A DNA stretch of 16,714 nt from Candidatus Thorarchaeota archaeon. GTDB lineage: Archaea > Asgardarchaeota > Thorarchaeia > Thorarchaeales > Thorarchaeaceae. The notes beneath the pieces were generated by a model that was not told the DNA's origin, ran no database searches, and saw nothing but the letters and a program-made list of their open reading frames with translations. Position numbers and translations under genes: made by a program. Below are positions 284-16,467 of this stretch, piece after piece. The stretch is taken from positions 1 to 16,714 of the forward strand of contig JBHLRS010000058.1 of NCBI GenBank assembly GCA_048882325.1, read 5' to 3'. How positions within the stretch are numbered: the stretch's first letter is position 1; every line of letters begins with the position of its first letter.

Positions 284-3200
284 ATGGCAAAGGGCACACA
301 AGATCGAGACAAGTACTGGCCAGTTATAGAGGCCTTCTTTGATCAGTACGGACTAGTAGGTCAGCATCTTGACTCGTTTAACCGATTCATAAGAGAAGAG
401 CTCCAACAGGTAGTGGACAGTGTTGGTAAGCTCACGCCGAAGATTGAAGGCTATGTCGTGGAACTTGGCGATATCCATGTTGACGAGCCTTCCATTCGAG
501 AGGCTGATGGTAGTGAACACAAGCTCTACCCCAATGAGGCGAGAATCCGAAACCTCACCTATGCAAGCAAGTTACACCTTGACATGACCCCAGTCCGGAA
601 GGAGGGCTCTGTGTCAACCAGACTTGAAACCATGAGGATTTACATTGGGGACCTACCAATCATGCTGCGGAGTGAGAAATGCCATCTGAACGGCCTGCCA
701 GATGAAGAGCTCATAAAACACGGCGAGGATCCTAAGGACCCAGGTGGTTACTTCATCATCAACGGGTCCGAGCGAGTTCTAGTGACGCAAGAGGATCTAG
801 CGCCCAACAGGATTCTAATTGAAGAAGCAAGCAAGAGCTCAAGCTACACACACATTGCTAAGGTCTTCTCCACTTCACGAGGTTTCCGAGCACCAGTCAC
901 TATCGAGCGAAAGCGAACTGGTGAACTAAGAGTATCATTCCCATCAGTGCCCGGTAAAATACCCTTAGCCATCCTTCTGAAGGCACTCGGTCTCGAGAAG
1001 GACATAGACATTGTTGATGTCATCTCGGACGATGATGAGATACGAAACGAACTCATTGTCACCATTGAGCAGTCAGCTCCTATCAACGCACCCACTGGTG
1101 AAGAGGATGAATCAACCCGTAACAATGCGCTAGACTTCATTGGAAAACGTGTTGCTGTGGGTCAGACAAAGGAGTATCGTCTTGCACGTGCAGAGAAAGT
1201 ACTGGACCGCTATCTTCTCCCACACATTGGGACTGAGGAAGACAGCAGACTTCAGAAGGCGTACTATCTCGGTCAGATGGTGGAACGACTTCTTGAGTTG
1301 GTACTCAGTAAGCGAGCTCCTGATGACAAGGACCACTATGCAAACAAGAGGCTGAAACTCTCAGGTGACCTTCTCATGTCACTCTTCAGAGTGGCTCTCT
1401 ACTCACTGACCCGTGATATCAAGTATCAATTAGAACGTACAGCAGTTCGAGGTCGCAAGCCCAATATCAGGACTGCAGTAAGAGCTGATGTAATCACACA
1501 GAGACTGAAACATGCACTCGCTACAGGTAACTGGGTCGGAGGTAAGGCTGGTGTATCACAACTACTTGATCGGACCAACTACATTTCCTCCCTCTCACAT
1601 CTCAGACGAGTTGTTTCACCCCTTTCACGATCACAGCCGCACTTCGAGGCACGAGACCTCCATTCAACCCACTGGGGTAAGATTTGTCCAAACGAGACCC
1701 CAGAAGGACCAAACTGTGGCCTTGTGAAGAACATCGCTATGATGGCCTACATCTCAGTTGGAACTGACGAGGAAGCTGTGGAACGTGCCCTACTCAAGGC
1801 CGAAGTCGAGCCCATCGAGAAGCTCCGTGGAAAACGGGGCACTAAATGGGCTGATGTCTTCTTGAATGGTCGACTCGTTGGTATCCATCCAGCACCACAG
1901 GTTTTGGTGAAGACAATCCGACAGAAGCGTCGTAATGGCGAGATTGATCACCAGACAAACATTGCTTACTATGAAGACACCCACGAAGTCCAGGTCAACT
2001 GCGATGCTGGTCGTGTGAGGAGACCTGTCATTGTTGTCGAGAATGGAAAGAGTGGTCTCACTGATGAACACCTAAGAATGGTCCTCGAAACCGAGTGGGG
2101 TTTCTTAGACCTTCTACGCAATGGAACTGTAGAGTTCATTGACGCAGAAGAGGAAGAGAACACACTGATTGCGATGTATCCAGAAGATATTGGACCAAAC
2201 ACAACCCATATGGAGATTGTACCATCCACTATTTTGGGTATTTCTGCAGCCCTAATTCCGTTCCCAGAGCGAAATCAGTCACCACGTAATGTGTACATGG
2301 CTGGAATGGCAAAACAATCAGTAGGTGTTCCTGCTTCTAACTTCAGATACAGAGCAGATACACGATCACACTTCTTCCACTATCCTCAGGTACCACTTGT
2401 AAAGACCCGCGCAATGGACTCGATTGGCTATGAAGACCGTCCGGCTGGTCAGAACTTCATTGTGGCCATCCTCTCCTTCGAGGGCTATAATATTGAAGAC
2501 GCGCTCATCATGAACAAGGCCTCTATTGAAAGAGGTCTAGGTCGAAGCACCTTCGCAAGAGTGTATGAGAGTGAAGAGAGGAAGTATCCCGGTGGTCAAG
2601 AGGACCGATTCGAAATTCCTGATCGAAGTGTCAGAGGCTACAGAGCCTCTGAGTCCTATCGAAACCTTGGTGAGGACGGCATTATTGAAACCGAGGTCGA
2701 GGTCATGGGAGGCGATGTACTCATTGGAAGAACCTCTCCACCACGATTCTTGGAGGAATACTCTGAGTTTGAAATTGCTTCTCCAAACCGCCGAGAAACA
2801 TCAGTTGCGGTACGTCATGGAGAGGCTGGTGTGGTTGATAGCGTCATACTTACAGAAACCATTGATGGTAATCGTCTAGTAAAGGTAAAGGTTCGAGACC
2901 TACGAATCCCTGAGCTGGGCGATAAGTACGCCTCTCGTCATGGACAGAAGGGAGTCATTGGGTACATTGTGCCCCAACAGGACCTCCCATTCACTGAAGA
3001 CGGAGTTGTTCCAGACCTTCTGATTAATCCACACGCAATCCCAAGTCGAATGACAATTGGTCAGATTCTTGAGATGGTTGCAGGAAAAGCAGCTTGTATG
3101 GTTGGGAAACAGCAGGATGCAACACCTTTCTGTGGAGTCACAGAGGATGAACTGTTTGAAATCCTCAAGAAACATGGTCTGAAGCACAATGGACGCGAAA

Positions 3201-3655
3201 CCATGTACTCAGGAATCACAGGCGAGAGGCTCAAGGTTGACATATTCATGGGCGTTATTTTCTATCAGAAGCTCCACCATATGGTCGCTGACAAAATCCA
3301 TGCTCGAGCAAGAGGACCCGTTCAGATTCTTACCAGGCAACCAACTGAGGGACGTGCCCGAGAGGGTGGTCTACGGTTTGGAGAAATGGAACGTGACGTA
3401 CTGATTGGTCATGGTGCGGCAATTCTACTGAAGGGTCGACTCCTAGATGAGTCGGACAAGAGCAACATGCTCGTCTGCGAGGACTGCGGTCTGATAGGCG
3501 TCTATGACCGCAACAAGGACCAGTATTACTGTCCAATCTGCGGAACAAATGCAAAGATCAGTAGCGTGGTCGTGTCTTACGCTTTCAAACTGTTAATACA
3601 AGAAATGATGTCACTTGGCCTGGCTACCAGGTTACGATTAAAGGAGATGATCTAG
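284..3655 (+). CDS. rpoB: DNA-directed RNA polymerase subunit B (Rpo2, unsplit B''+B'), 1123 aa
   Basis: Motifs GGYFIINGSERV, ETPEGPNCGL, GDKYASRHGQKG, HMVADKIHAR, GGLRFGEMERD and a C-terminal CEDC...CPIC zinc ribbon. Confidence 0.99.
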   Translation: MAKGTQDRDKYWPVIEAFFDQYGLVGQHLDSFNRFIREELQQVVDSVGKLTPKIEGYVVELGDIHVDEPSIREADGSEHKLYPNEARIRNLTYASKLHLDMTPVRKEGSVSTRLETMRIYIGDLPIMLRSEKCHLNGLPDEELIKHGEDPKDPGGYFIINGSERVLVTQEDLAPNRILIEEASKSSSYTHIAKVFSTSRGFRAPVTIERKRTGELRVSFPSVPGKIPLAILLKALGLEKDIDIVDVISDDDEIRNELIVTIEQSAPINAPTGEEDESTRNNALDFIGKRVAVGQTKEYRLARAEKVLDRYLLPHIGTEEDSRLQKAYYLGQMVERLLELVLSKRAPDDKDHYANKRLKLSGDLLMSLFRVALYSLTRDIKYQLERTAVRGRKPNIRTAVRADVITQRLKHALATGNWVGGKAGVSQLLDRTNYISSLSHLRRVVSPLSRSQPHFEARDLHSTHWGKICPNETPEGPNCGLVKNIAMMAYISVGTDEEAVERALLKAEVEPIEKLRGKRGTKWADVFLNGRLVGIHPAPQVLVKTIRQKRRNGEIDHQTNIAYYEDTHEVQVNCDAGRVRRPVIVVENGKSGLTDEHLRMVLETEWGFLDLLRNGTVEFIDAEEEENTLIAMYPEDIGPNTTHMEIVPSTILGISAALIPFPERNQSPRNVYMAGMAKQSVGVPASNFRYRADTRSHFFHYPQVPLVKTRAMDSIGYEDRPAGQNFIVAILSFEGYNIEDALIMNKASIERGLGRSTFARVYESEERKYPGGQEDRFEIPDRSVRGYRASESYRNLGEDGIIETEVEVMGGDVLIGRTSPPRFLEEYSEFEIASPNRRETSVAVRHGEAGVVDSVILTETIDGNRLVKVKVRDLRIPELGDKYASRHGQKGVIGYIVPQQDLPFTEDGVVPDLLINPHAIPSRMTIGQILEMVAGKAACMVGKQQDATPFCGVTEDELFEILKKHGLKHNGRETMYSGITGERLKVDIFMGVIFYQKLHHMVADKIHARARGPVQILTRQPTEGRAREGGLRFGEMERDVLIGHGAAILLKGRLLDESDKSNMLVCEDCGLIGVYDRNKDQYYCPICGTNAKISSVVVSYAFKLLIQEMMSLGLATRLRLKEMI

Positions 3656-7721
<4,066 letters not shown>

Positions 7722-7734
7722 CAGAGGTCACGGC

Positions 7735-7747
7735 GGAAACATTAAAA
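7735..7747 (+). promoter_or_regulatory. Putative BRE/TATA internal promoter upstream of rpl30e
   Basis: GGAAACATTAAAA in the 87-nt gap, nearly identical to CGAAACGATTAAAA upstream of tuf. Confidence 0.5.
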
Positions 7748-7808
7748 CAGAATACCAATTGACGCAACCAGTTCGGGTATACCAACAAATCACTTACGAG
7801 GTCATACA

Positions 7809-8102
7809 ATGAGCCTGAATCAACCAATAGCAAGTGCAGTAAACACAGGCGAGTGCAAGATAGGTACACGGTCTTCCATTGATGCAATCAAGACTGGTAA
7901 AGCACAACTTGTTGTTGTGTCATCTAACTGTCCCAAGGATGACTTAGAAGACATCGAGCAGTTTGCAAAACTCGCTGAGATTAAGGTCCATAAATTCGAG
8001 GGAACTTCGTGGGATTTGGGTGAAGTCGTTGGTAAGCCATTCATGGTTTCTGCCATAGCCATAATCAAGCCTGGTAACTCAAAGATTTTGAAAATGGTCT
8101 GA
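7809..8102 (+). CDS. rpl30e: 50S ribosomal protein L30e (eL30)
   Basis: AVNTGECKIG...GKAQLVVVSSNCP...SWDLGEVVGKPF..S.IAI..PG.S.IL pattern, canonical position after rpoA2, GAGGT SD. Confidence 0.96.
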   Translation: MSLNQPIASAVNTGECKIGTRSSIDAIKTGKAQLVVVSSNCPKDDLEDIEQFAKLAEIKVHKFEGTSWDLGEVVGKPFMVSAIAIIKPGNSKILKMV

Positions 8103-8112
8103 GGGGAGTCAA

Positions 8113-8547
8113 TTGGGAAGAGTCAAACTCTCCATGGAGGACATGGCACTCATAGCCAAGTTCGAACAGATTACAGGCGCTGCAGCAATAGATGTAATTC
8201 GTGACGACGAAGGTGAACGGATCATAGTTGTGGTTCGTCCAAAGCAACTTGGTAAAGCAATTGGTCGAGGTGGTGTCAATGTCAAGGCTGCCTCAGAGGC
8301 TTTTGGACGCCCAGTTGATGTTGTCGAAATGGCTGAAACAGCTGAGGCTTTCGTCATGAGCGCCTTAGCTCCAGCTCGAGTGGAGAGTGTGAAGATAATC
8401 GAGCACCGTGATGGCACTAGAGTAGCATCGGTGACTGTAAATACTGAAGATCGTGGCATTGCTATCGGCCGAGATGGGAGAAATGTCGCCCGAGCACGAA
8501 TTTTGGTACGCCGTCACTTTGACCTGAACAACGTTGTCATAGCATGA
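8113..8547 (+). CDS. nusA: Archaeal NusA (two KH domains), TTG start
   Basis: KH motifs GKAIGRGGVNV and GIAIGRDGRNV, FEQITGA near the N-terminus, canonical position, GAGGGGAG SD. Confidence 0.95.
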   Translation: MGRVKLSMEDMALIAKFEQITGAAAIDVIRDDEGERIIVVVRPKQLGKAIGRGGVNVKAASEAFGRPVDVVEMAETAEAFVMSALAPARVESVKIIEHRDGTRVASVTVNTEDRGIAIGRDGRNVARARILVRRHFDLNNVVIA

Positions 8548-8569
8548 GCGTTCTGGACACGTTCTCTTC

Positions 8570-8583
8570 CAAATCCTTTTAAG
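8570..8583 (+). promoter_or_regulatory. Putative BRE/TATA promoter upstream of rps12
   Basis: CAAATC-CTTTTAAG in the 109-nt nusA-rps12 gap. Confidence 0.45.
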
Positions 8584-8656
8584 GTTACAACAGGCCGGAG
8601 CCGATAACCACCATAGAGAGCGTACCATGAATGGTGCGTTTAAGAGGTAAATCATC

Positions 8657-9100
8657 TTGACAGGTTCAAAATCCCCATTGGGCGAGTTCGCAGCGCGACC
8701 TCTCCTCCGAAAGAGGAAGAAGTTCCGTTGGAAAAAGCCCACCTACAAAAGGCGCACTCTGAAGCTTAAGAGGAAGACCGACCCACTAGAGGGTGCTCCT
8801 CAAGCCAGAGGTATTGTCCTAGAGAAGGTAGGTATTGAGTCAAAGCAGCCAAACTCTGCTATCCGAAAGGCTGTAAGGATTCAACTCTCAAAGAATGGAA
8901 AACAGATCACTGCGTTCATACCTGGGGATGGTGGCCTGAAGTACATAGATGAACATGACTCTGTTGTTGTTGAGGGGATTGGTGGTGCTCAGGGTGGTCC
9001 AATTGGTGACTTACCTGGAGTTTCGTGGAAAGTAATAAAAGTCAACGGAGTCGGCCTGGAGTCACTGATCTATGGACGAAAGGAGAAGCCAATTCGATAG
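8657..9100 (+). CDS. rps12: 30S ribosomal protein S12 (uS12), TTG start
   Basis: [47 protein letters not shown]. Confidence 0.98.
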
Positions 9101-9109
9101 GTGGAAGTC

Positions 9110-9760
9110 ATGCCTGAAGAAGAAACCGTTGAACCAGTTGTTGAGGAAACCCCTCCTCATGAACCACCTGAACTTCTCTTGTTTGGCAAGTGGGACTCAA
9201 GTAATGTAGAAATTAATGACGTGGGTCTTGCAAGGTACATCTCGTTGAAACCAGTCCTTATTCCTCACACGTCAGGCAGGCATGCACACAAGAGATTCCA
9301 CAAGTCGCACATTCCTATTGTTGAGCGGTTTGCAAACAAGATGCTGAACGCAGGCCGCAGGAAGGACAAGAAGACACGAACTGGTAGAGGCGCTGGAAAG
9401 AAACTGCGAGCAATCAACACCCTCCGACGTGCCTTTGAAATCATCAATTACAGGACAGGACTCAACCCAGTTCAGGTCCTTGTTACAGCGATTGAGAACG
9501 CGGCTCCCGCAGAAGAAACAACCCGTATCTCATACGGTGGTATGGCCTATCCCCGTTCTGTGGATGTTTCACCACAGAGGAGGATTGACCTCGCCCTCAG
9601 ATACCTCTCAGTTGGTGCAGTTCGCTCAGCACACAAGAATGCTAAGTCATTCGAAGAGTGTCTAGTTGACGAGCTTCTTCTCGCTTACAAGAGTGATCCT
9701 GGTAGCTTTGCTATCGCTAGGAAAGAAGAGCGAGAACGAGTTGCTCGTTCTGCGAGATAA
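9110..9760 (+). CDS. rps7: 30S ribosomal protein S7 (uS7) with acidic N-terminal extension
   Basis: LFGKWD, PHTSGRH, NPVQVLVTAIENAAP.EE, VDVSPQRRIDLAL, KEERERVARSAR. ATG 9110 follows an AGGTGG SD; GTG 9101 is an alternative start. Confidence 0.97.
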   Translation: MPEEETVEPVVEETPPHEPPELLLFGKWDSSNVEINDVGLARYISLKPVLIPHTSGRHAHKRFHKSHIPIVERFANKMLNAGRRKDKKTRTGRGAGKKLRAINTLRRAFEIINYRTGLNPVQVLVTAIENAAPAEETTRISYGGMAYPRSVDVSPQRRIDLALRYLSVGAVRSAHKNAKSFEECLVDELLLAYKSDPGSFAIARKEERERVARSAR

Positions 9761-11067: not shown

Positions 11068-12105
11068 ATGTCAGAAGAACTCAAAGTTGGCACAGCAGTT
11101 GTAAAACGAGGCGAACTCCAGAAGGGAGTAATTAAAGGAATTGAACTGAACACGACAACAAGCATCGATATCCCTGTACTAGTAATGAATGGAGCAAAAG
11201 ATGGACCAACCGTGCTTATGGTCTCCACACAACACGGTATAGAGATTCAGGGTATCGAGGTCATTCACAGGATAATGAGGGAAAAGGTGAGTCCAAAGAA
11301 TCTTCGAGGAGCCATTATTGGAATCCCCGTAGAGAACCCGCTAGCCTTCATGCACCATCAGTACCTCTCATGGATTGATAATCAAGACCTAGGTGGAGGT
11401 GGCAGTGCCAGTCCTTTGACAGCGGACAAACCGAAGGGTACAGCTACTGAGCGTTTGGCGCATGTTCTCTGGCAGGAGGCTTGGAGCAAGACTGACATGG
11501 TCCTCAACATGCACACCAATGTCAGACCTGACTCTCTCTTCTTCACTGAAATCAACATAGGTAATCCCAAGACGAGAGAGAAACTTGAGAAGATGGCTGA
11601 GGCTTTTGGAGTGACCAATGTGGTTGAAAATGTGCCAATAGCCGATGATGCACCAGACACTCTAGCAAATTTGGCTGTAAAGAACGGGGTTCCAGACATC
11701 CTCATCGAGTTCATTGATGGCAGATGGATCTCAGAACCCTCTACTACTGTAGGGGTACGAGGGGTTCTCAATATCTTGAAGGCCTTTGACATGATAGACG
11801 GTGAGATTGAGCCTCAGGAAGATATCATAATCATTCCCGGAATCTGTACATTTCATGGAATCGTCACTGCAAACAGAGGCGGTCTCATCCGGTTTCTCAA
11901 GACACCTGGAGATTTCATGAAGAAAGGTGAGGTGTTTGCTGAAATCTATGACCTCTATGGTGATGTCCTAGAGAGAGTAGAGTGTCCCATTGATGGATAC
12001 ATCTGGGCCTATCCATGTGGAGATATACTTGGTACTCCTGGTAGTCTACAAGCGGTCCAGACAGGCGCTAACATCGCATATGTCTTTACTTCAGACAAAC
12101 AATGA
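11068..12105 (+). CDS. M14-family succinylglutamate desuccinylase/aspartoacylase-like zinc hydrolase (345 aa)
   Basis: GPT......HGIE..G zinc motif, NPLAF, NMH third ligand, LIE catalytic Glu region, C-terminal barrel-sandwich-hybrid domain (ANRGGL...PGD..KKGE...CPIDG). ATG 11068 after GAGGT. Confidence 0.9.
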   Translation: MSEELKVGTAVVKRGELQKGVIKGIELNTTTSIDIPVLVMNGAKDGPTVLMVSTQHGIEIQGIEVIHRIMREKVSPKNLRGAIIGIPVENPLAFMHHQYLSWIDNQDLGGGGSASPLTADKPKGTATERLAHVLWQEAWSKTDMVLNMHTNVRPDSLFFTEINIGNPKTREKLEKMAEAFGVTNVVENVPIADDAPDTLANLAVKNGVPDILIEFIDGRWISEPSTTVGVRGVLNILKAFDMIDGEIEPQEDIIIIPGICTFHGIVTANRGGLIRFLKTPGDFMKKGEVFAEIYDLYGDVLERVECPIDGYIWAYPCGDILGTPGSLQAVQTGANIAYVFTSDKQ

Positions 12106-12132
12106 ACTTCTAGTAAAACCATCCGCGAATTT
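12102..12132 (+). repeat. Direct repeat copy 1, overlapping the M14 stop codon
   Basis: ATGAACTTCTAGTAAAACCATCCGCGAATTT; 27/31 identical to 13115-13145, with a 22/23 core at 12108-12130. Confidence 0.9.
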
Positions 12133-12145
12133 ATGGTTGTGCCAC

Positions 12146-13118: not shown

Positions 13119-13145
13119 ATTTCTAGTAAAACTATCCGCGAATCT
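13115..13145 (+). repeat. Direct repeat copy 2, overlapping the SH3 gene stop codon
   Basis: ATAAATTTCTAGTAAAACTATCCGCGAATCT, in the same register relative to the stop codon as copy 1. Confidence 0.9.
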
Positions 13146-13165
13146 GGAACAGACCCTTCTTAAAA

Positions 13166-13849
13166 TTATAGATTGGCAGAAAAACCGAGATACCTCTCAT
13201 TTTTCAAAACATCAAGCTGCATCGATCGACCACAGGTCTGACAATGTACTTCACGGTCACGAGTTATCTGATATTCCTCGTAGATATTCACTGTCCTGCA
13301 ATATGGACATCTAATTCCCTGTGGTGTCCAATCTTCGCTCACGACACGTACTGGACCAAATTCTCTATGGCAATGTTGACACTTAGAAGACTCGACAACC
13401 TCGCTAATCCCCTTATCGGATTGAAATCTCGCATAGCAGTGTGGACATCTAATGGTTTGAATCTGCTCGTCAACCTCTCTCCATTTCCAACCCTTATTCT
13501 CTGCCAGATCAATCAGATTGTGCCGCAGGTTACTTTGGTTGCCATCTAAGAGGTCATTGAACCAAACCCTCTCGCCTCCCCCAAAACCCATGATCTCTAT
13601 ATCACATCCTTTCGTTTCTTTCTCATAATTGAGAATCACAATCATCACTATAGAGCCTATTGCTCCCGGCGAAGATTGCACGAAGACACCAACTACGCGA
13701 TCAGTTGAACTCCAAACATTACTCCAAATGATAGACTCCAGCTTCTGGAGAATTGAAACTAAGGAATCGACCTCCGCTCCTTCAAATTTCAGCGTGAGCA
13801 AACAAGACACCATTCGGTCCTCGTTCATAGAGCAGATTAAACTATCCAA
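13166..13849 (-). CDS. Hypothetical protein with two C-terminal C4 zinc ribbons
   Basis: CPHC...CQHC and CPYC...CQTC pairs after an alpha/beta N-terminal domain. True start may be ATG 13828 or 13813. Confidence 0.82.
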   Translation of the reverse strand: MDSLICSMNEDRMVSCLLTLKFEGAEVDSLVSILQKLESIIWSNVWSSTDRVVGVFVQSSPGAIGSIVMIVILNYEKETKGCDIEIMGFGGGERVWFNDLLDGNQSNLRHNLIDLAENKGWKWREVDEQIQTIRCPHCYARFQSDKGISEVVESSKCQHCHREFGPVRVVSEDWTPQGIRCPYCRTVNIYEEYQITRDREVHCQTCGRSMQLDVLKNERYLGFSANL

Positions 13850-13988
13850 TTATTGTTGAAAACTACTATTTGTTTCCACTTCTGTCTATCCAGTTAAATT
13901 GAATCAATATTCTTTAACCAGCTTTTGTATTGTTCAGCGAATCTCGAAGAAAATTAATTGCTCCAGCCCTCTTAGTTATGGAATTCAT

Positions 13989-15161
13989 CTACGTATTTGC
14001 AATTCTCTGCATTAAATCACTAAGTCTTGGTTCAATCTTTTTTACAGAGTGCAATTCAATAACAAGGCGAATGAAATCCAAAGATGTTAGAAGGGAACTG
14101 CCTTTTTGATACCTCTTCATTTGTTCATCAATGATACATTTGAAGAACTCCAAAGGGAAATGCACCACCATCGATGATAACGCATAACTCTGTGCAATAT
14201 CATTAACGTATCTATCTCCGTCGGAAATCACCAATGGCAACACTAGAAAACTCGGATATTTCTCTAGTATTTGGTTCATAAAAGTTACAGACTGAGATAC
14301 TGCTTTCTTACTTGCATGGCTACGTTTTAGCTCACAGGCAAATGCCAAACCTCCAATCTGTTGAGATGCAGCTTGTCCTGTTGTAGGAATGATAACCATC
14401 AAATCATCCCCTGTTGAACCAAGTGGAGGTTCAGTGTTTTTCCTTGGACCATTCTTATATTGAGAATGAAAACCAAGAATCCTAAAAACCCTTGAAATAA
14501 ATTCAAGCATTGGTGCTTCAGCTTTGTCCGGTGAAGCTGTCTTGAAATCATTGTAGCATTTCATCAATTGTGAATGGGATAATGGATTTTGAGAGCTTGC
14601 GGATATAAACTCAGCTGACGTAAGATCCAGATATAGGGATAAATCTAGACCTTTTTCCGAGTACCACGAAGTTAGATTGTGGACCAGTGATGTGGCTGGC
14701 AATACTGATTGAAATTCCTTATCTCTACGATATATGAATCCAGCAAACTCATACCAATCAATCACTGTACCAGCTAACGATTTTGCATTTCGTTCTTCTT
14801 CTACGAATAATTGAATGCAGGAAACAATCACCTGATTATCAATTTGAGTCCCTTCAGTTCTAATACAGTTGGTCAGATGACCCAACCCATCTTTTTCATC
14901 CATCAAAAAATCTGAAATAATTCGTCCTTGATTTGTTTCATTACAAAACTCTCGACCTCGAGAAGTTATACTCACCTCACTATTTTCTGTATTGATTAGG
15001 TTCAGATTCTGTGCTGTACTAAGATGATTGGCAATGGCAGCCGAGTTTTTATAGCCTAATGATTTAGCAAGTTTTGTTTTTTCAACAGGACTCTTTGAAC
15101 ATAATTTTCGCATAAACTCTCGAAGTTTCTCTGTGTTTATTTTTGGAAATCTATCTTCCAT
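13989..15161 (-). CDS. Tandem winged-helix protein fused to a PD-(D/E)XK (Mrr-like) endonuclease domain, 390 aa
   Basis: N-terminal wHTH (LAKSLGY...IANHLSTAQNLNLI...ITSRG). C-terminal restriction-endonuclease pattern: EFISRVFRILGF helix, GDDL, ACELK, KKAVSQ, PLVIS, A..YA. SD AGGTGG. Confidence 0.72.
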   Translation of the reverse strand: MEDRFPKINTEKLREFMRKLCSKSPVEKTKLAKSLGYKNSAAIANHLSTAQNLNLINTENSEVSITSRGREFCNETNQGRIISDFLMDEKDGLGHLTNCIRTEGTQIDNQVIVSCIQLFVEEERNAKSLAGTVIDWYEFAGFIYRRDKEFQSVLPATSLVHNLTSWYSEKGLDLSLYLDLTSAEFISASSQNPLSHSQLMKCYNDFKTASPDKAEAPMLEFISRVFRILGFHSQYKNGPRKNTEPPLGSTGDDLMVIIPTTGQAASQQIGGLAFACELKRSHASKKAVSQSVTFMNQILEKYPSFLVLPLVISDGDRYVNDIAQSYALSSMVVHFPLEFFKCIIDEQMKRYQKGSSLLTSLDFIRLVIELHSVKKIEPRLSDLMQRIANT

Positions 15162-15193
15162 TTAACCACCTGCTTTGAATATTGATTTCGATG

Positions 15194-15748
15194 TCAGAGA
15201 TTGTTCAGTCTCTCATACTCTTTTCTTGCATTATCAGTCATTTTCACTGAATCTTCATCCCTTTCGAAAATTCCAACTCTCAGAAATAAATCAACCAATG
15301 TCTGAGCACCCATAGCTGCATTGGTTGTTTGCATTAATTTTCCTGCGTCAGCCACAATTCTTTCCAAGAATGAATTCTCATCAACCTGCTTACGATAATA
15401 CAAATAGTCAAGTAGCGGTTTCCCCTCACTCCAGTTCCATAGTTGGTCACTCATCTTTTCTACAAATTCATCCATTAAATCATAGTCAATTGCTCTAGAA
15501 ATCTTGCATCCAATGTCAGTGAGTTGATTCTTCTTCCCATTCTTTTTCAAGATGCCAATTTGATTTAGAAATGTATTTTGGTTTGAAACTAATTTTTTCT
15601 TGCTTTCCAATTTTGCCTCACTACTGGTACGGCTTGCAACTTCTTCATTTGTCAAAGGTCCAATGCAACCTCTTGCTCTGTTCCATGCTCCAATTACATC
15701 TAGAAACCCCTCTAGTGATACACCATATGGGATTGCCATTGAACTCAA
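15194..15748 (-). CDS. Tandem winged-helix DNA-binding-like hypothetical protein, 184 aa
   Basis: PLTNEEVASRT...VSNQNTFLNQIGIL...LTDIG and LVDLFLRVGIF. TTG start overlaps the upstream TGA stop, with a GGAGG SD; ATG 15739 is an alternative. Confidence 0.78.
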   Translation of the reverse strand: MSSMAIPYGVSLEGFLDVIGAWNRARGCIGPLTNEEVASRTSSEAKLESKKKLVSNQNTFLNQIGILKKNGKKNQLTDIGCKISRAIDYDLMDEFVEKMSDQLWNWSEGKPLLDYLYYRKQVDENSFLERIVADAGKLMQTTNAAMGAQTLVDLFLRVGIFERDEDSVKMTDNARKEYERLNNL

Positions 15749-16269
15749 TCCGACTCCTCCTCCAAGAAAGGTTGAATTAACCCTGATCTAGAAAACCACT
15801 CAAGAGCTGAAGATACACGACTCTCTTCTTTTGTCCCTGCTTCCTCCATAATGAACTCCACCAAACCCTGACTCATTCCACCACCATGAATTCTCAAATA
15901 GCGATTAACATTTCTAAAAAGGAGAGACTTTTCGAGAATTGAAGCAATTTGAGTAAAATTCTCATCTCCGGGATCACAGTTACTGAAATCAATAGCAGCT
16001 TCTGTTGGGCTATAATTTCCTCTACTTGTGTTTACCAACAATCCAAGCATAACCATAAACGAATTTACACCAGAAATTTGTGTTCTACCTAACCTTGTGA
16101 TACGCATTACATCCTTGTAGTGTACCGGGTTTTTTCCATTTTCACTTAGTACAACATAAGCTCGTATGATTCTAACTTGATCATCAAATGATACTCCCGA
16201 TGTCGGTACTAAGGGTCTTGAAATATCGTCTTCACTCATTGGTGTTCCTTCCATTAACCTTTCAATCAC
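15745..16269 (-). CDS. Tandem winged-helix DNA-binding-like hypothetical protein (about 164-174 aa)
   Basis: PVHYKDVMRITRLGRTQISGVNSFMVMLGLL...GNYSPT and ALEWFSRSGLI. Start could be GTG 16269, ATG 16254 or ATG 16239. Confidence 0.78.
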   Translation of the reverse strand: MIERLMEGTPMSEDDISRPLVPTSGVSFDDQVRIIRAYVVLSENGKNPVHYKDVMRITRLGRTQISGVNSFMVMLGLLVNTSRGNYSPTEAAIDFSNCDPGDENFTQIASILEKSLLFRNVNRYLRIHGGGMSQGLVEFIMEEAGTKEESRVSSALEWFSRSGLIQPFLEEESD

Positions 16270-16276
16270 GTTTTTC

Positions 16277-16306
16277 CTATTGACACACTATTGAGTAGTC
16301 AATAGT
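16277..16306. promoter_or_regulatory. Operator-like palindrome upstream of the wHTH operon
   Basis: Perfect ACTATTGA-GTAG-TCAATAGT (16287-16306) plus a third half-site CTATTGA at 16277, 11 bp before the half-site at 16288. Confidence 0.6.
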
Positions 16307-16467
16307 CCCCTTCGGTCTTTGCGCTAATGGATTCGAAGTTTGACTTACAAATCCATTGAGAATAAGCTACGAACACACAATTTAGGTTTGTCTCTTTAAG
16401 TTAACTTTTAGTGATAAGATTAAACAACTCAGAGAGGCTCTCTTCCCTCTTGGATAACTGACCTTGT

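Follow-up and report, generated by a model that had tools for sequence, protein, structure and literature searches.

Type IIS restriction enzymes and nickases such as FokI, N.BspD6I and BpuJI begin with winged-helix recognition domains and end with a PD-(D/E)xK nuclease domain, and restriction-modification (R-M) systems of this type include a cognate methyltransferase. R.BspD6I is heteromeric, its extra subunit being a second nuclease. In the Menshen system, NsnA carries sensor pairs of tandem winged helix-turn-helix domains that resemble those of BpuJI and FokI (PMC12065111). Here we describe a three-gene operon, A-B-C, in a 16,714-nt stretch of DNA from a Candidatus Thorarchaeota archaeon (assembly GCA_048882325.1, contig JBHLRS010000058.1), hereafter called the window; it is contig C58 of a 3.6-Mb genome that is 93% complete. 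The last gene, C, encodes a predicted endonuclease with the domain order of the type IIS enzymes at the level of the fold. Where R.BspD6I has a second nuclease, A and B are recognition-type modules lacking a nuclease domain, and the islet of DNA that holds the operon has no methyltransferase gene. On balance, we favour the view that this islet is an acquired defence or addiction cassette, in which a FokI-like endonuclease would be controlled by the recognition-module paralogues A and B. We favour it because the nuclease is paired with nuclease-free modules, no methylase is present, the genes form an operon with a palindrome, the spread is sporadic and acquired, and the genomic contexts are of a defence type.

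The three genes are as follows, in window positions.

15745-16239, minus strand: gene A, a 164-residue nuclease-free tandem winged-helix protein; ATG start supported by homologues.

15194-15739, minus strand: gene B, a 181-residue nuclease-free tandem winged-helix protein; ATG start supported by homologues.

13989-15161, minus strand: gene C, a 390-residue protein with a tandem winged-helix module and a predicted PD-(D/E)xK endonuclease domain.

With these starts, the ATG of B lies 5 nt past the stop of A, and C begins 32 nt past the stop of B. Gene A has an alternative GTG start at 16269 (open reading frame [ORF] 15745-16269) and gene B an alternative TTG start at 15748 (ORF 15194-15748), which would give a 4-nt overlap with the A stop. 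Shine-Dalgarno-like purine runs precede B (GGAGG-rich) and C (GGTGG). Homologues of each protein were found in other assemblies at 40-78% identity, with many invariant residues; the closest homologue of C is 78% identical. Since homologues at these distances share invariant residues, we take A, B and C to be real genes rather than chance ORFs, and we regard the gene structure as established. An N-terminal h-P-x motif is kept within each family, as LVPTSG in A, AIPYG in B and FPK or FPR in C, and the genome has a single copy of each gene. The original prediction, made from the letters of the sequence, had described three linked minus-strand genes in an AT-rich islet with no methyltransferase, ATPase or integrase. 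The ORFs lie where it placed them, the G+C content measured there is low (see below), and none of the three gene types was found among the islet ORFs by the ORF list and family-library searches.

We compared the N-terminal part of C with A and B. Pairwise BLASTP among the three proteins gave no significant similarity, and hhalign with alignments of 6-7 sequences was merely suggestive (E 0.0036-0.11), with matches colinear across the whole module. The families were enriched with relatives from other Thorarchaeota genomes and by a library-wide hidden Markov model (HMM) search before the final hhalign comparison. After enrichment, A aligned with B over 154 columns (96.1% probability, E 2.9e-9), A with C residues 1-150 over 141 columns (96.4%, E 1.3e-9) and B with C residues 1-150 over 144 columns (96.8%, E 2.7e-10). 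Controls with reversed or column-shuffled alignments gave E values of 0.025 or worse. Plain hmmsearch also connected the families: one protein of 644 residues matches the A HMM at 2e-6 and the B HMM at 1e-31, and another of 291 residues matches those of A (5e-8), B (1e-55), the C N-terminus (5e-9) and a further module family, F (1e-8). B-like proteins thus cross-match the A, C N-terminal and F HMMs directly. These comparisons indicate that A, B and C carry one homologous tandem winged-helix module of ~150 residues belonging to the AAA_assoc_C superfamily. The three are old, divergent branches of that superfamily and not recent duplicates; in hhalign, the N-terminus of C is nearer to branches E, F and D, found in relatives, than to A or B.

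The position of the module in Pfam is borderline for C, which scores 26.2 bits against PF09821 (AAA_assoc_C) with hmmscan (E 1.3e-5) and 28.2 bits in a six-frame search, the gathering threshold being 27.6. The F-type module reaches 25 bits, and E-type partners are clear members at 57 bits. A and B have no match to PF09821 at E up to 1 and are linked to it through hhalign and HMM cross-matches only. The paralogy proposed in the original prediction was borne out by profile alignment, with E values of 2.9e-9 to 2.7e-10 against at least 0.025 in the controls; the short residue strings on which it drew are present, and hhalign puts them in the same columns. The link that it suggested to AAA_assoc_C and DUF5343 proved correct, as C is a borderline PF09821 match and one distant homologue of C has a DUF5343 protein proper as its partner. 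The idea that DUF5343 is itself the A/B/C module was unsupported: PF17278 (DUF5343) matches no Thorarchaeota module gene and is absent from the genome of the window, and one single-sequence hhalign comparison with it was insignificant.

The features of the C protein, with the codons that specify them, are these.

14706-15161, minus strand: C residues 1-152, AAA_assoc_C-like tandem winged-helix module (first winged helix 10-65, second ~94-152).

13992-14576, minus strand: C residues 196-390, predicted FokI/BspD6I-like PD-(D/E)xK cleavage domain, from structural matches.

14403-14405, minus strand: D253 codon, the 'PD' aspartate at the start of strand beta-2; invariant in a 32-sequence alignment, position from the model.

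14325-14333, minus strand: E277-L278-K279 codons, the ExK motif in strand beta-3 (271-279); K279 invariant, E277 in at least 90%.

The AlphaFold2 model of C, built from the 32-sequence alignment, has a predicted local distance difference test score (pLDDT) of 91.7 and a predicted template modelling score (pTM) of 0.78. The first winged helix in the model consists of helices 10-23, 28-34 and 40-52 and a hairpin at 56-65. The second has its hairpin at 143-152 and is followed by a helical linker. The nuclease core has the order alpha-beta-beta-beta-alpha-beta, with helices at 215-227 and 285-301 and strands at 232-234, 253-259, 271-279 and 305-313. C therefore shows the features by which the PD-(D/E)xK superfamily is recognized, namely the core fold, an aspartate at the start of beta-2 and ExK in beta-3. 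A glutamine, Q290, is invariant across the 32 family members and sits in the helix after the ExK strand.

The best Foldseek match to the C model was N.BspD6I (E 4e-8), followed by HindIII and NucS. With VIA-align, N.BspD6I aligned over the whole length (Z 13.3) and the R.BspD6I small subunit over residues 196-384 (Z 11.9, root mean square deviation [rmsd] 4.1, 163 residues). Lower scores were obtained with FokI (Z 10.0), the Hna nuclease domain (Z 9.9), HindIII (Z 9.7) and NucS (Z 7.7 at 25% identity), and through the nuclease domain only with AspBHI (Z 7.1) and MspJI (Z 6.0). Residues 1-160 aligned with the BpuJI recognition domain (Z 7.8). ESM Atlas gave AlwI, FokI_cleav_dom and Mrr_cat as leads. 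By sequence, residues 150-390 have no Pfam, NCBIfam or PADLOC match at E up to 1, and a search of the PDB with C gave one weak match, to NucS at ELKR..AVSQ (E 0.43); the same search with an E-type partner gave nothing useful. We consider it very probable that the C protein acts as an endonuclease on DNA, with a type IIS-like architecture. A housekeeping or repair role of the NucS kind was rejected, as C occurs in only 2 of 400 Asgard genomes.

The AlphaFold2 model of A (pLDDT 90, pTM 0.85) has a MarR-like winged helix in its first half (Z 7-7.8) and a helical second half. Its module of 155 residues aligns with residues 5-249 of FokI (Z 7.7) and residues 1-256 of N.BspD6I (Z 6.3), the recognition region in both cases; these Z values are middling and carry supporting weight only. 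Winged helices had been expected from the sequence and were seen in both models, and the nuclease was correctly assigned to C only, where the PD-(D/E)xK fold is modelled and the D...ExK...Q residues are conserved. The comparison with Mrr and DpnI fared less well, since the nuclease domain of C is structurally closest to FokI/BspD6I-type cleavage domains instead.

We then considered how often a C-type nuclease is accompanied by a partner. The C family is small, with 37 representatives among 1.84 billion cluster representatives in an HMM search. The DNA encoding its members ranges from 38 to 63% G+C, and the family has therefore spread across distant hosts. Within the 400 Asgard genomes, A was found in 15 and B in 12, almost all of one family. 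The C-family loci described here were found by a degenerate DNA pattern, and members without ELKR....K.[AS]V.Q were missed. A small partner gene adjoins C in all five loci with usable flanks, namely the window, L005, L053, L046 and L048, and in four of the five the partner carries the same winged-helix module. In L005 (G322/CSMAG_407) and L053 (a 124-kb Thorarchaeota contig), the C homologue is accompanied by a D-type protein of 273-276 residues and an E-type protein of 163-166 residues. The E partners match AAA_assoc_C at 4e-15, and D and E match the N-terminal region of the C-family profile at 2e-6 and 4e-18, respectively. In L048, the C homologue is followed by D. This homologue (L048:1-1254, SDBS01228632.1) is split into ORFs of 213 and 192 residues between the module and the nuclease domain, for which a frameshift, an error of assembly and a true division of the gene are all conceivable.

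The exception is L046 (L046:190-7578, Ga0187892_10005795), a metagenome contig of 58% G+C on which a DUF5343 gene overlaps the gene for a 409-residue C homologue. The DUF5343 protein matches its Pfam family at 4.7e-14 and PADLOC PDC-M34A at 8.9e-13, and the pair lies directly beside a type I R-M operon of hsdS, hsdM and an EcoEI-type hsdR, on the opposite strand. The original prediction had proposed a search for the gene triplet in other genomes. The result was mixed: among the C-family loci with usable flanks the exact trio was seen in this lineage only, and the design of a C-type nuclease with one or two nuclease-free partners recurs.

The operon lies within an islet that interrupts otherwise conserved DNA.

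13141-16430: strain-specific low-GC insertion (islet) of 3.29 kb, between an SH3-domain gene and the EF-1alpha promoter region.

The rest of the window is typical archaeal sequence, with an rpoB-rpoA'-rpoA''-L30e-NusA-S12-S7 string at 284-9760 on the plus strand and the start of EF-1alpha from 16557 onward. Congeneric DNA aligns with the window up to ~13140 and resumes at ~16430, with 75-85% identity upstream of the islet and ~95% over the EF-1alpha upstream and start segment. The site is empty in four congeneric genomes (L067-L070), where the flanks are just 14-47 nt apart. Because a fifth congener, G338 (L066), has a different, unrelated insert of ~470 bp in the same spot, this intergenic site behaves as an insertion hotspot. 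The islet has 38.6% G+C compared with 44.3% for the genome, placing it within the lowest 0.18% of equal-sized genome windows; the fraction is 0.36-0.39 across A, B and C and 0.44-0.51 in the flanks. From this comparison we judge the islet to be horizontally acquired, strain-specific DNA. The nearest named relatives of the A, B and C proteins come from Candidatus Thorarchaeota metagenome-assembled genomes. No tRNA was found at the junctions and no integrase or replication gene within the islet. No relatives were found in plasmid, phage or IMG/VR viral-contig collections, and viral or plasmid carriage is thus without support.

A motif of ~25 nt, TTCTAGTAAAACYATCCGCGAAT, occurs at 12105-12133 and 13119-13145, directly after the stops of an AstE-like gene and the SH3 gene. 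There are only three copies in the whole genome, the second of which lies right at the left boundary of the islet, and relatives keep the motif at their empty site. Besides A, B and C, the islet contains one further gene.

13166-13849, minus strand: 227-residue multi-zinc-ribbon protein; zinc-ribbon matches only.

In this protein, three zinc ribbons of the CxxC type accompany an N-terminal domain for which no match was found. Its family is multi-copy in the genus, being found in 22 of 28 genomes, with a paralogue in the same genome at G000:C21:32229-32834. We rejected it as a fourth component of the system because the family is multi-copy and shows no linkage to A/B/C-type genes elsewhere.

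Two inverted repeats precede gene A.

16277-16306: operator-like inverted half-sites ACTATTGA / TCAATAGT / GTCAATAG, 35-67 nt upstream of the A ATG.

16326-16357: second perfect 8-bp inverted repeat, AATGGATT-N16-AATCCATT, further upstream of A.

The A homologue in G392 (L025) has ACTATCGG-N15-CCGATAGT equally far upstream (-68), and the changes in its two arms match each other. These half-sites fit a winged-helix autoregulator.

Taken together as a working model, these results suggest how the proposed cassette might operate, and in it we infer DNA cleavage, complex formation, the sensor-effector logic of the original prediction, an inhibitory or regulatory role for A and B, and any anti-virus effect. 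The N-terminal winged-helix pair of C would read DNA, and its FokI/BspD6I-like domain would cut it, probably after dimerization. A and B would most likely control the nuclease by occupying its sites on the host DNA; alternatively, they would bind the module of C itself and so prevent pairing of the cleavage domains. In either case their role would be antitoxin-like or immunity-like, and they would most likely also act as repressors of the operon by way of the palindromic operator that precedes A.

Several points weigh against the defence or addiction cassette. Among the C-family loci with usable flanks, none from another lineage had the exact A-B-C trio, and L046 is the only C-family locus that adjoins a recognized defence system. 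The likeness to FokI-type enzymes holds domain by domain only, as the global rmsd in Foldseek and VIA-align is 16-21 Å and the domain orientations differ, and C has no sequence-level match to PF09254 (FokI_cleav_dom), Mrr_cat or any other curated restriction endonuclease family. The covariation of the operator rests on two loci as complete examples. Furthermore, A-like and B-like genes were also seen as solitary genes or with unrelated neighbours (L071, L073 and L074), and because of this A and B could be ordinary transcription factors.

The last point leads to one alternative, that there is no functional system: A and B would be lineage-specific transcription factors and C an unrelated stand-alone nuclease, for example of a repair or homing type, the three being mere neighbours in foreign DNA. 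The solitary or otherwise placed A-like and B-like genes speak for this, and in G322 A and the C homologue are on different contigs. However, with gaps of 5 and 32 nt and Shine-Dalgarno-like purine runs the genes are spaced as in an operon, a partner gene is adjacent in every C-family locus with enough flank (5/5), and A, B and C arrived together in one 3.3-kb insertion. We regard mere neighbourhood as very unlikely. The same tight coupling, with small DNA-binding genes upstream of a nuclease and a palindrome before the first gene, is typical of toxin-antitoxin modules. C might thus be the toxin of a pure addiction module of a mobile element, with A and/or B as DNA-binding antitoxins and autorepressors that stabilize the insert and with no role against viruses. 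Insertion at a variable hotspot would suit such an element, as would the D5-type primase gene near the A/B cluster of G392. Yet the islet is without an integrase or replication gene, and no plasmid, phage or IMG/VR matches were obtained. A pure addiction module overlaps heavily with the cassette that we favour, and sequence alone cannot separate the two; in the form without any anti-virus role, we think it unlikely.

It is also conceivable that C attacks only DNA carrying a foreign modification, as methylase-free type IV-like enzymes do, and would then need no immunity, with A and B as HsdS-like specificity or recruitment subunits and not inhibitors. The islet has no methyltransferase, the nuclease domain of C resembles AspBHI, MspJI and Mrr-type domains as well, and the winged helices in Mrr_N and DpnI read modified DNA. 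Nevertheless, no sequence match was obtained to a known modification reader such as Mrr_N, SRA or YTH, it is sequence-specific type IIS enzymes that match C best in structure, and a modification-dependent enzyme would leave unexplained why nuclease-free partners are conserved beside the C homologues. We consider this reading fairly unlikely.

A and B are not confined to operons with C; elsewhere they are paired with other effectors or stand alone. A recurrent A-type locus was seen in Thorarchaeota at L029:6762-11624 (G322:C214), L030:4589-10143 (G348:C33) and L032:4092-10058 (G336:C2). It consists of an A-type gene, two or three module proteins of 250-330 residues (types F, G and D), a protein of ~650 residues that carries a B-type module at its N-terminus, ahead of an AAA_15/AAA_21 ATPase, and then a 170-residue PIN_3 protein; a protein of 1400-1800 residues is encoded nearby. 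The ATPase fusion matches PADLOC NsnB (3.9e-38) and AriA (3.4e-26), and the locus resembles an as yet undescribed ATPase-nuclease system of the Menshen/PARIS kind that would use winged-helix adaptor proteins. In one Thorarchaeota genus (L027:4156-7952, L028:7615-11457 and L034:4051-8787), the A-type gene adjoins the gene for a 1054-residue STAND-like protein with AAA_16 and TPR domains, possibly another effector or sensor pairing for A. Lastly, L025:8276-9268 (G392:C51, minus strand) encodes a 330-residue protein with an A-type module and a C-terminal domain of 170 residues. This domain lies near PLD-like phosphodiesterase clusters in ESM Atlas (0.90-0.92, a lead only) and has IHDRWIITKD where the canonical HxK motif is expected. 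The gene adjoins a 250-residue B-type gene and a second A gene, and an AbiTii gene lies 3-4 kb, the D5-type primase gene 5-6 kb, away from this A/B cluster of G392.

A wider reading of the operon can be offered tentatively, as a possibility that we consider doubtful. The operon would be a methylase-free restriction-like system that obtains self-protection or target choice from free-standing paralogues of its recognition module, A and B acting as decoy or occluding subunits or as dominant-negative partners that keep the FokI-like domain from dimerizing. It would also be one face of a wider undescribed Thorarchaeota toolkit, with some bacterial members, in which the AAA_assoc_C-type tandem winged-helix module is the common adaptor for interchangeable effectors. 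These would be the PD-(D/E)xK nuclease, the pair of ABC ATPase and PIN protein and, possibly, a domain of the PLD-like type.

If the defence or addiction cassette is real, it would represent a restriction-type nuclease without a methyltransferase, under the control of proteins that repeat its DNA-reading module but lack the nuclease. This would be an immunity logic unlike that of classical R-M systems and of modification-dependent enzymes, and a lineage-specific addition to what little is known of defence in Asgard archaea. The uncharacterized AAA_assoc_C module would thereby acquire its first function, which might extend to partners such as DUF5343 in PDC-M34. The C protein is compact (390 residues) and confidently predicted, its family is small, and it should be easy to test; a new winged-helix-guided FokI-like cleavage domain may be of practical interest.

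With respect to described systems, the parts are known in kind, namely winged-helix recognition and the PD-(D/E)xK restriction endonuclease fold, and the C family is uncatalogued. None of the models in PADLOC, NCBIfam and PHROGs matched A, B or C, and in Pfam there is only the borderline AAA_assoc_C match of C; the PADLOC check proposed with the original prediction thus returned no model for any of the three. No database or paper searched describes a methylase-free nuclease that is accompanied by separately encoded paralogues of its recognition module, and the literature on AAA_assoc_C, PF09821, DUF5343 and the Asgard defensome yielded no description of an A-B-C system. Lacking a methyltransferase and any family match by sequence, C is not classifiable as a type IIS R-M enzyme, and it has two winged-helix subdomains compared with three in FokI. 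Its N-terminus is of the winged-helix type, as in Mrr_N among the type IV (Mrr/MspJI/DpnI-like) enzymes, without a sequence match to known modification readers. The A-B-C layout and the upstream palindrome fit a type II toxin-antitoxin system.

The likeness to Menshen (NsnABC) lies in the relatives' loci with a B-module-ATPase fusion and PIN protein and not in the operon of the window, which, unlike Menshen-type ATPase and nuclease systems, is without an ATPase, ParB or PIN gene. The Pfam name AAA_assoc_C refers to a C-terminal position on ABC ATPases, whereas the module here is stand-alone, fused to a nuclease or, in relatives, at the N-terminus of an AAA_15/21 ATPase. Finally, A, B and C match no PDC-M34 model, only the partner in L046 being M34A-like. 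The L046 pair seems to tie the C family loosely to PDC-M34, of which the proteins of the window are not themselves members. Compared with PDC-M34, the operon has as its effector a PD-(D/E)xK DNase-type domain joined to a winged-helix module of its own, and it has two partners, both of them paralogues of the N-terminus of the effector.

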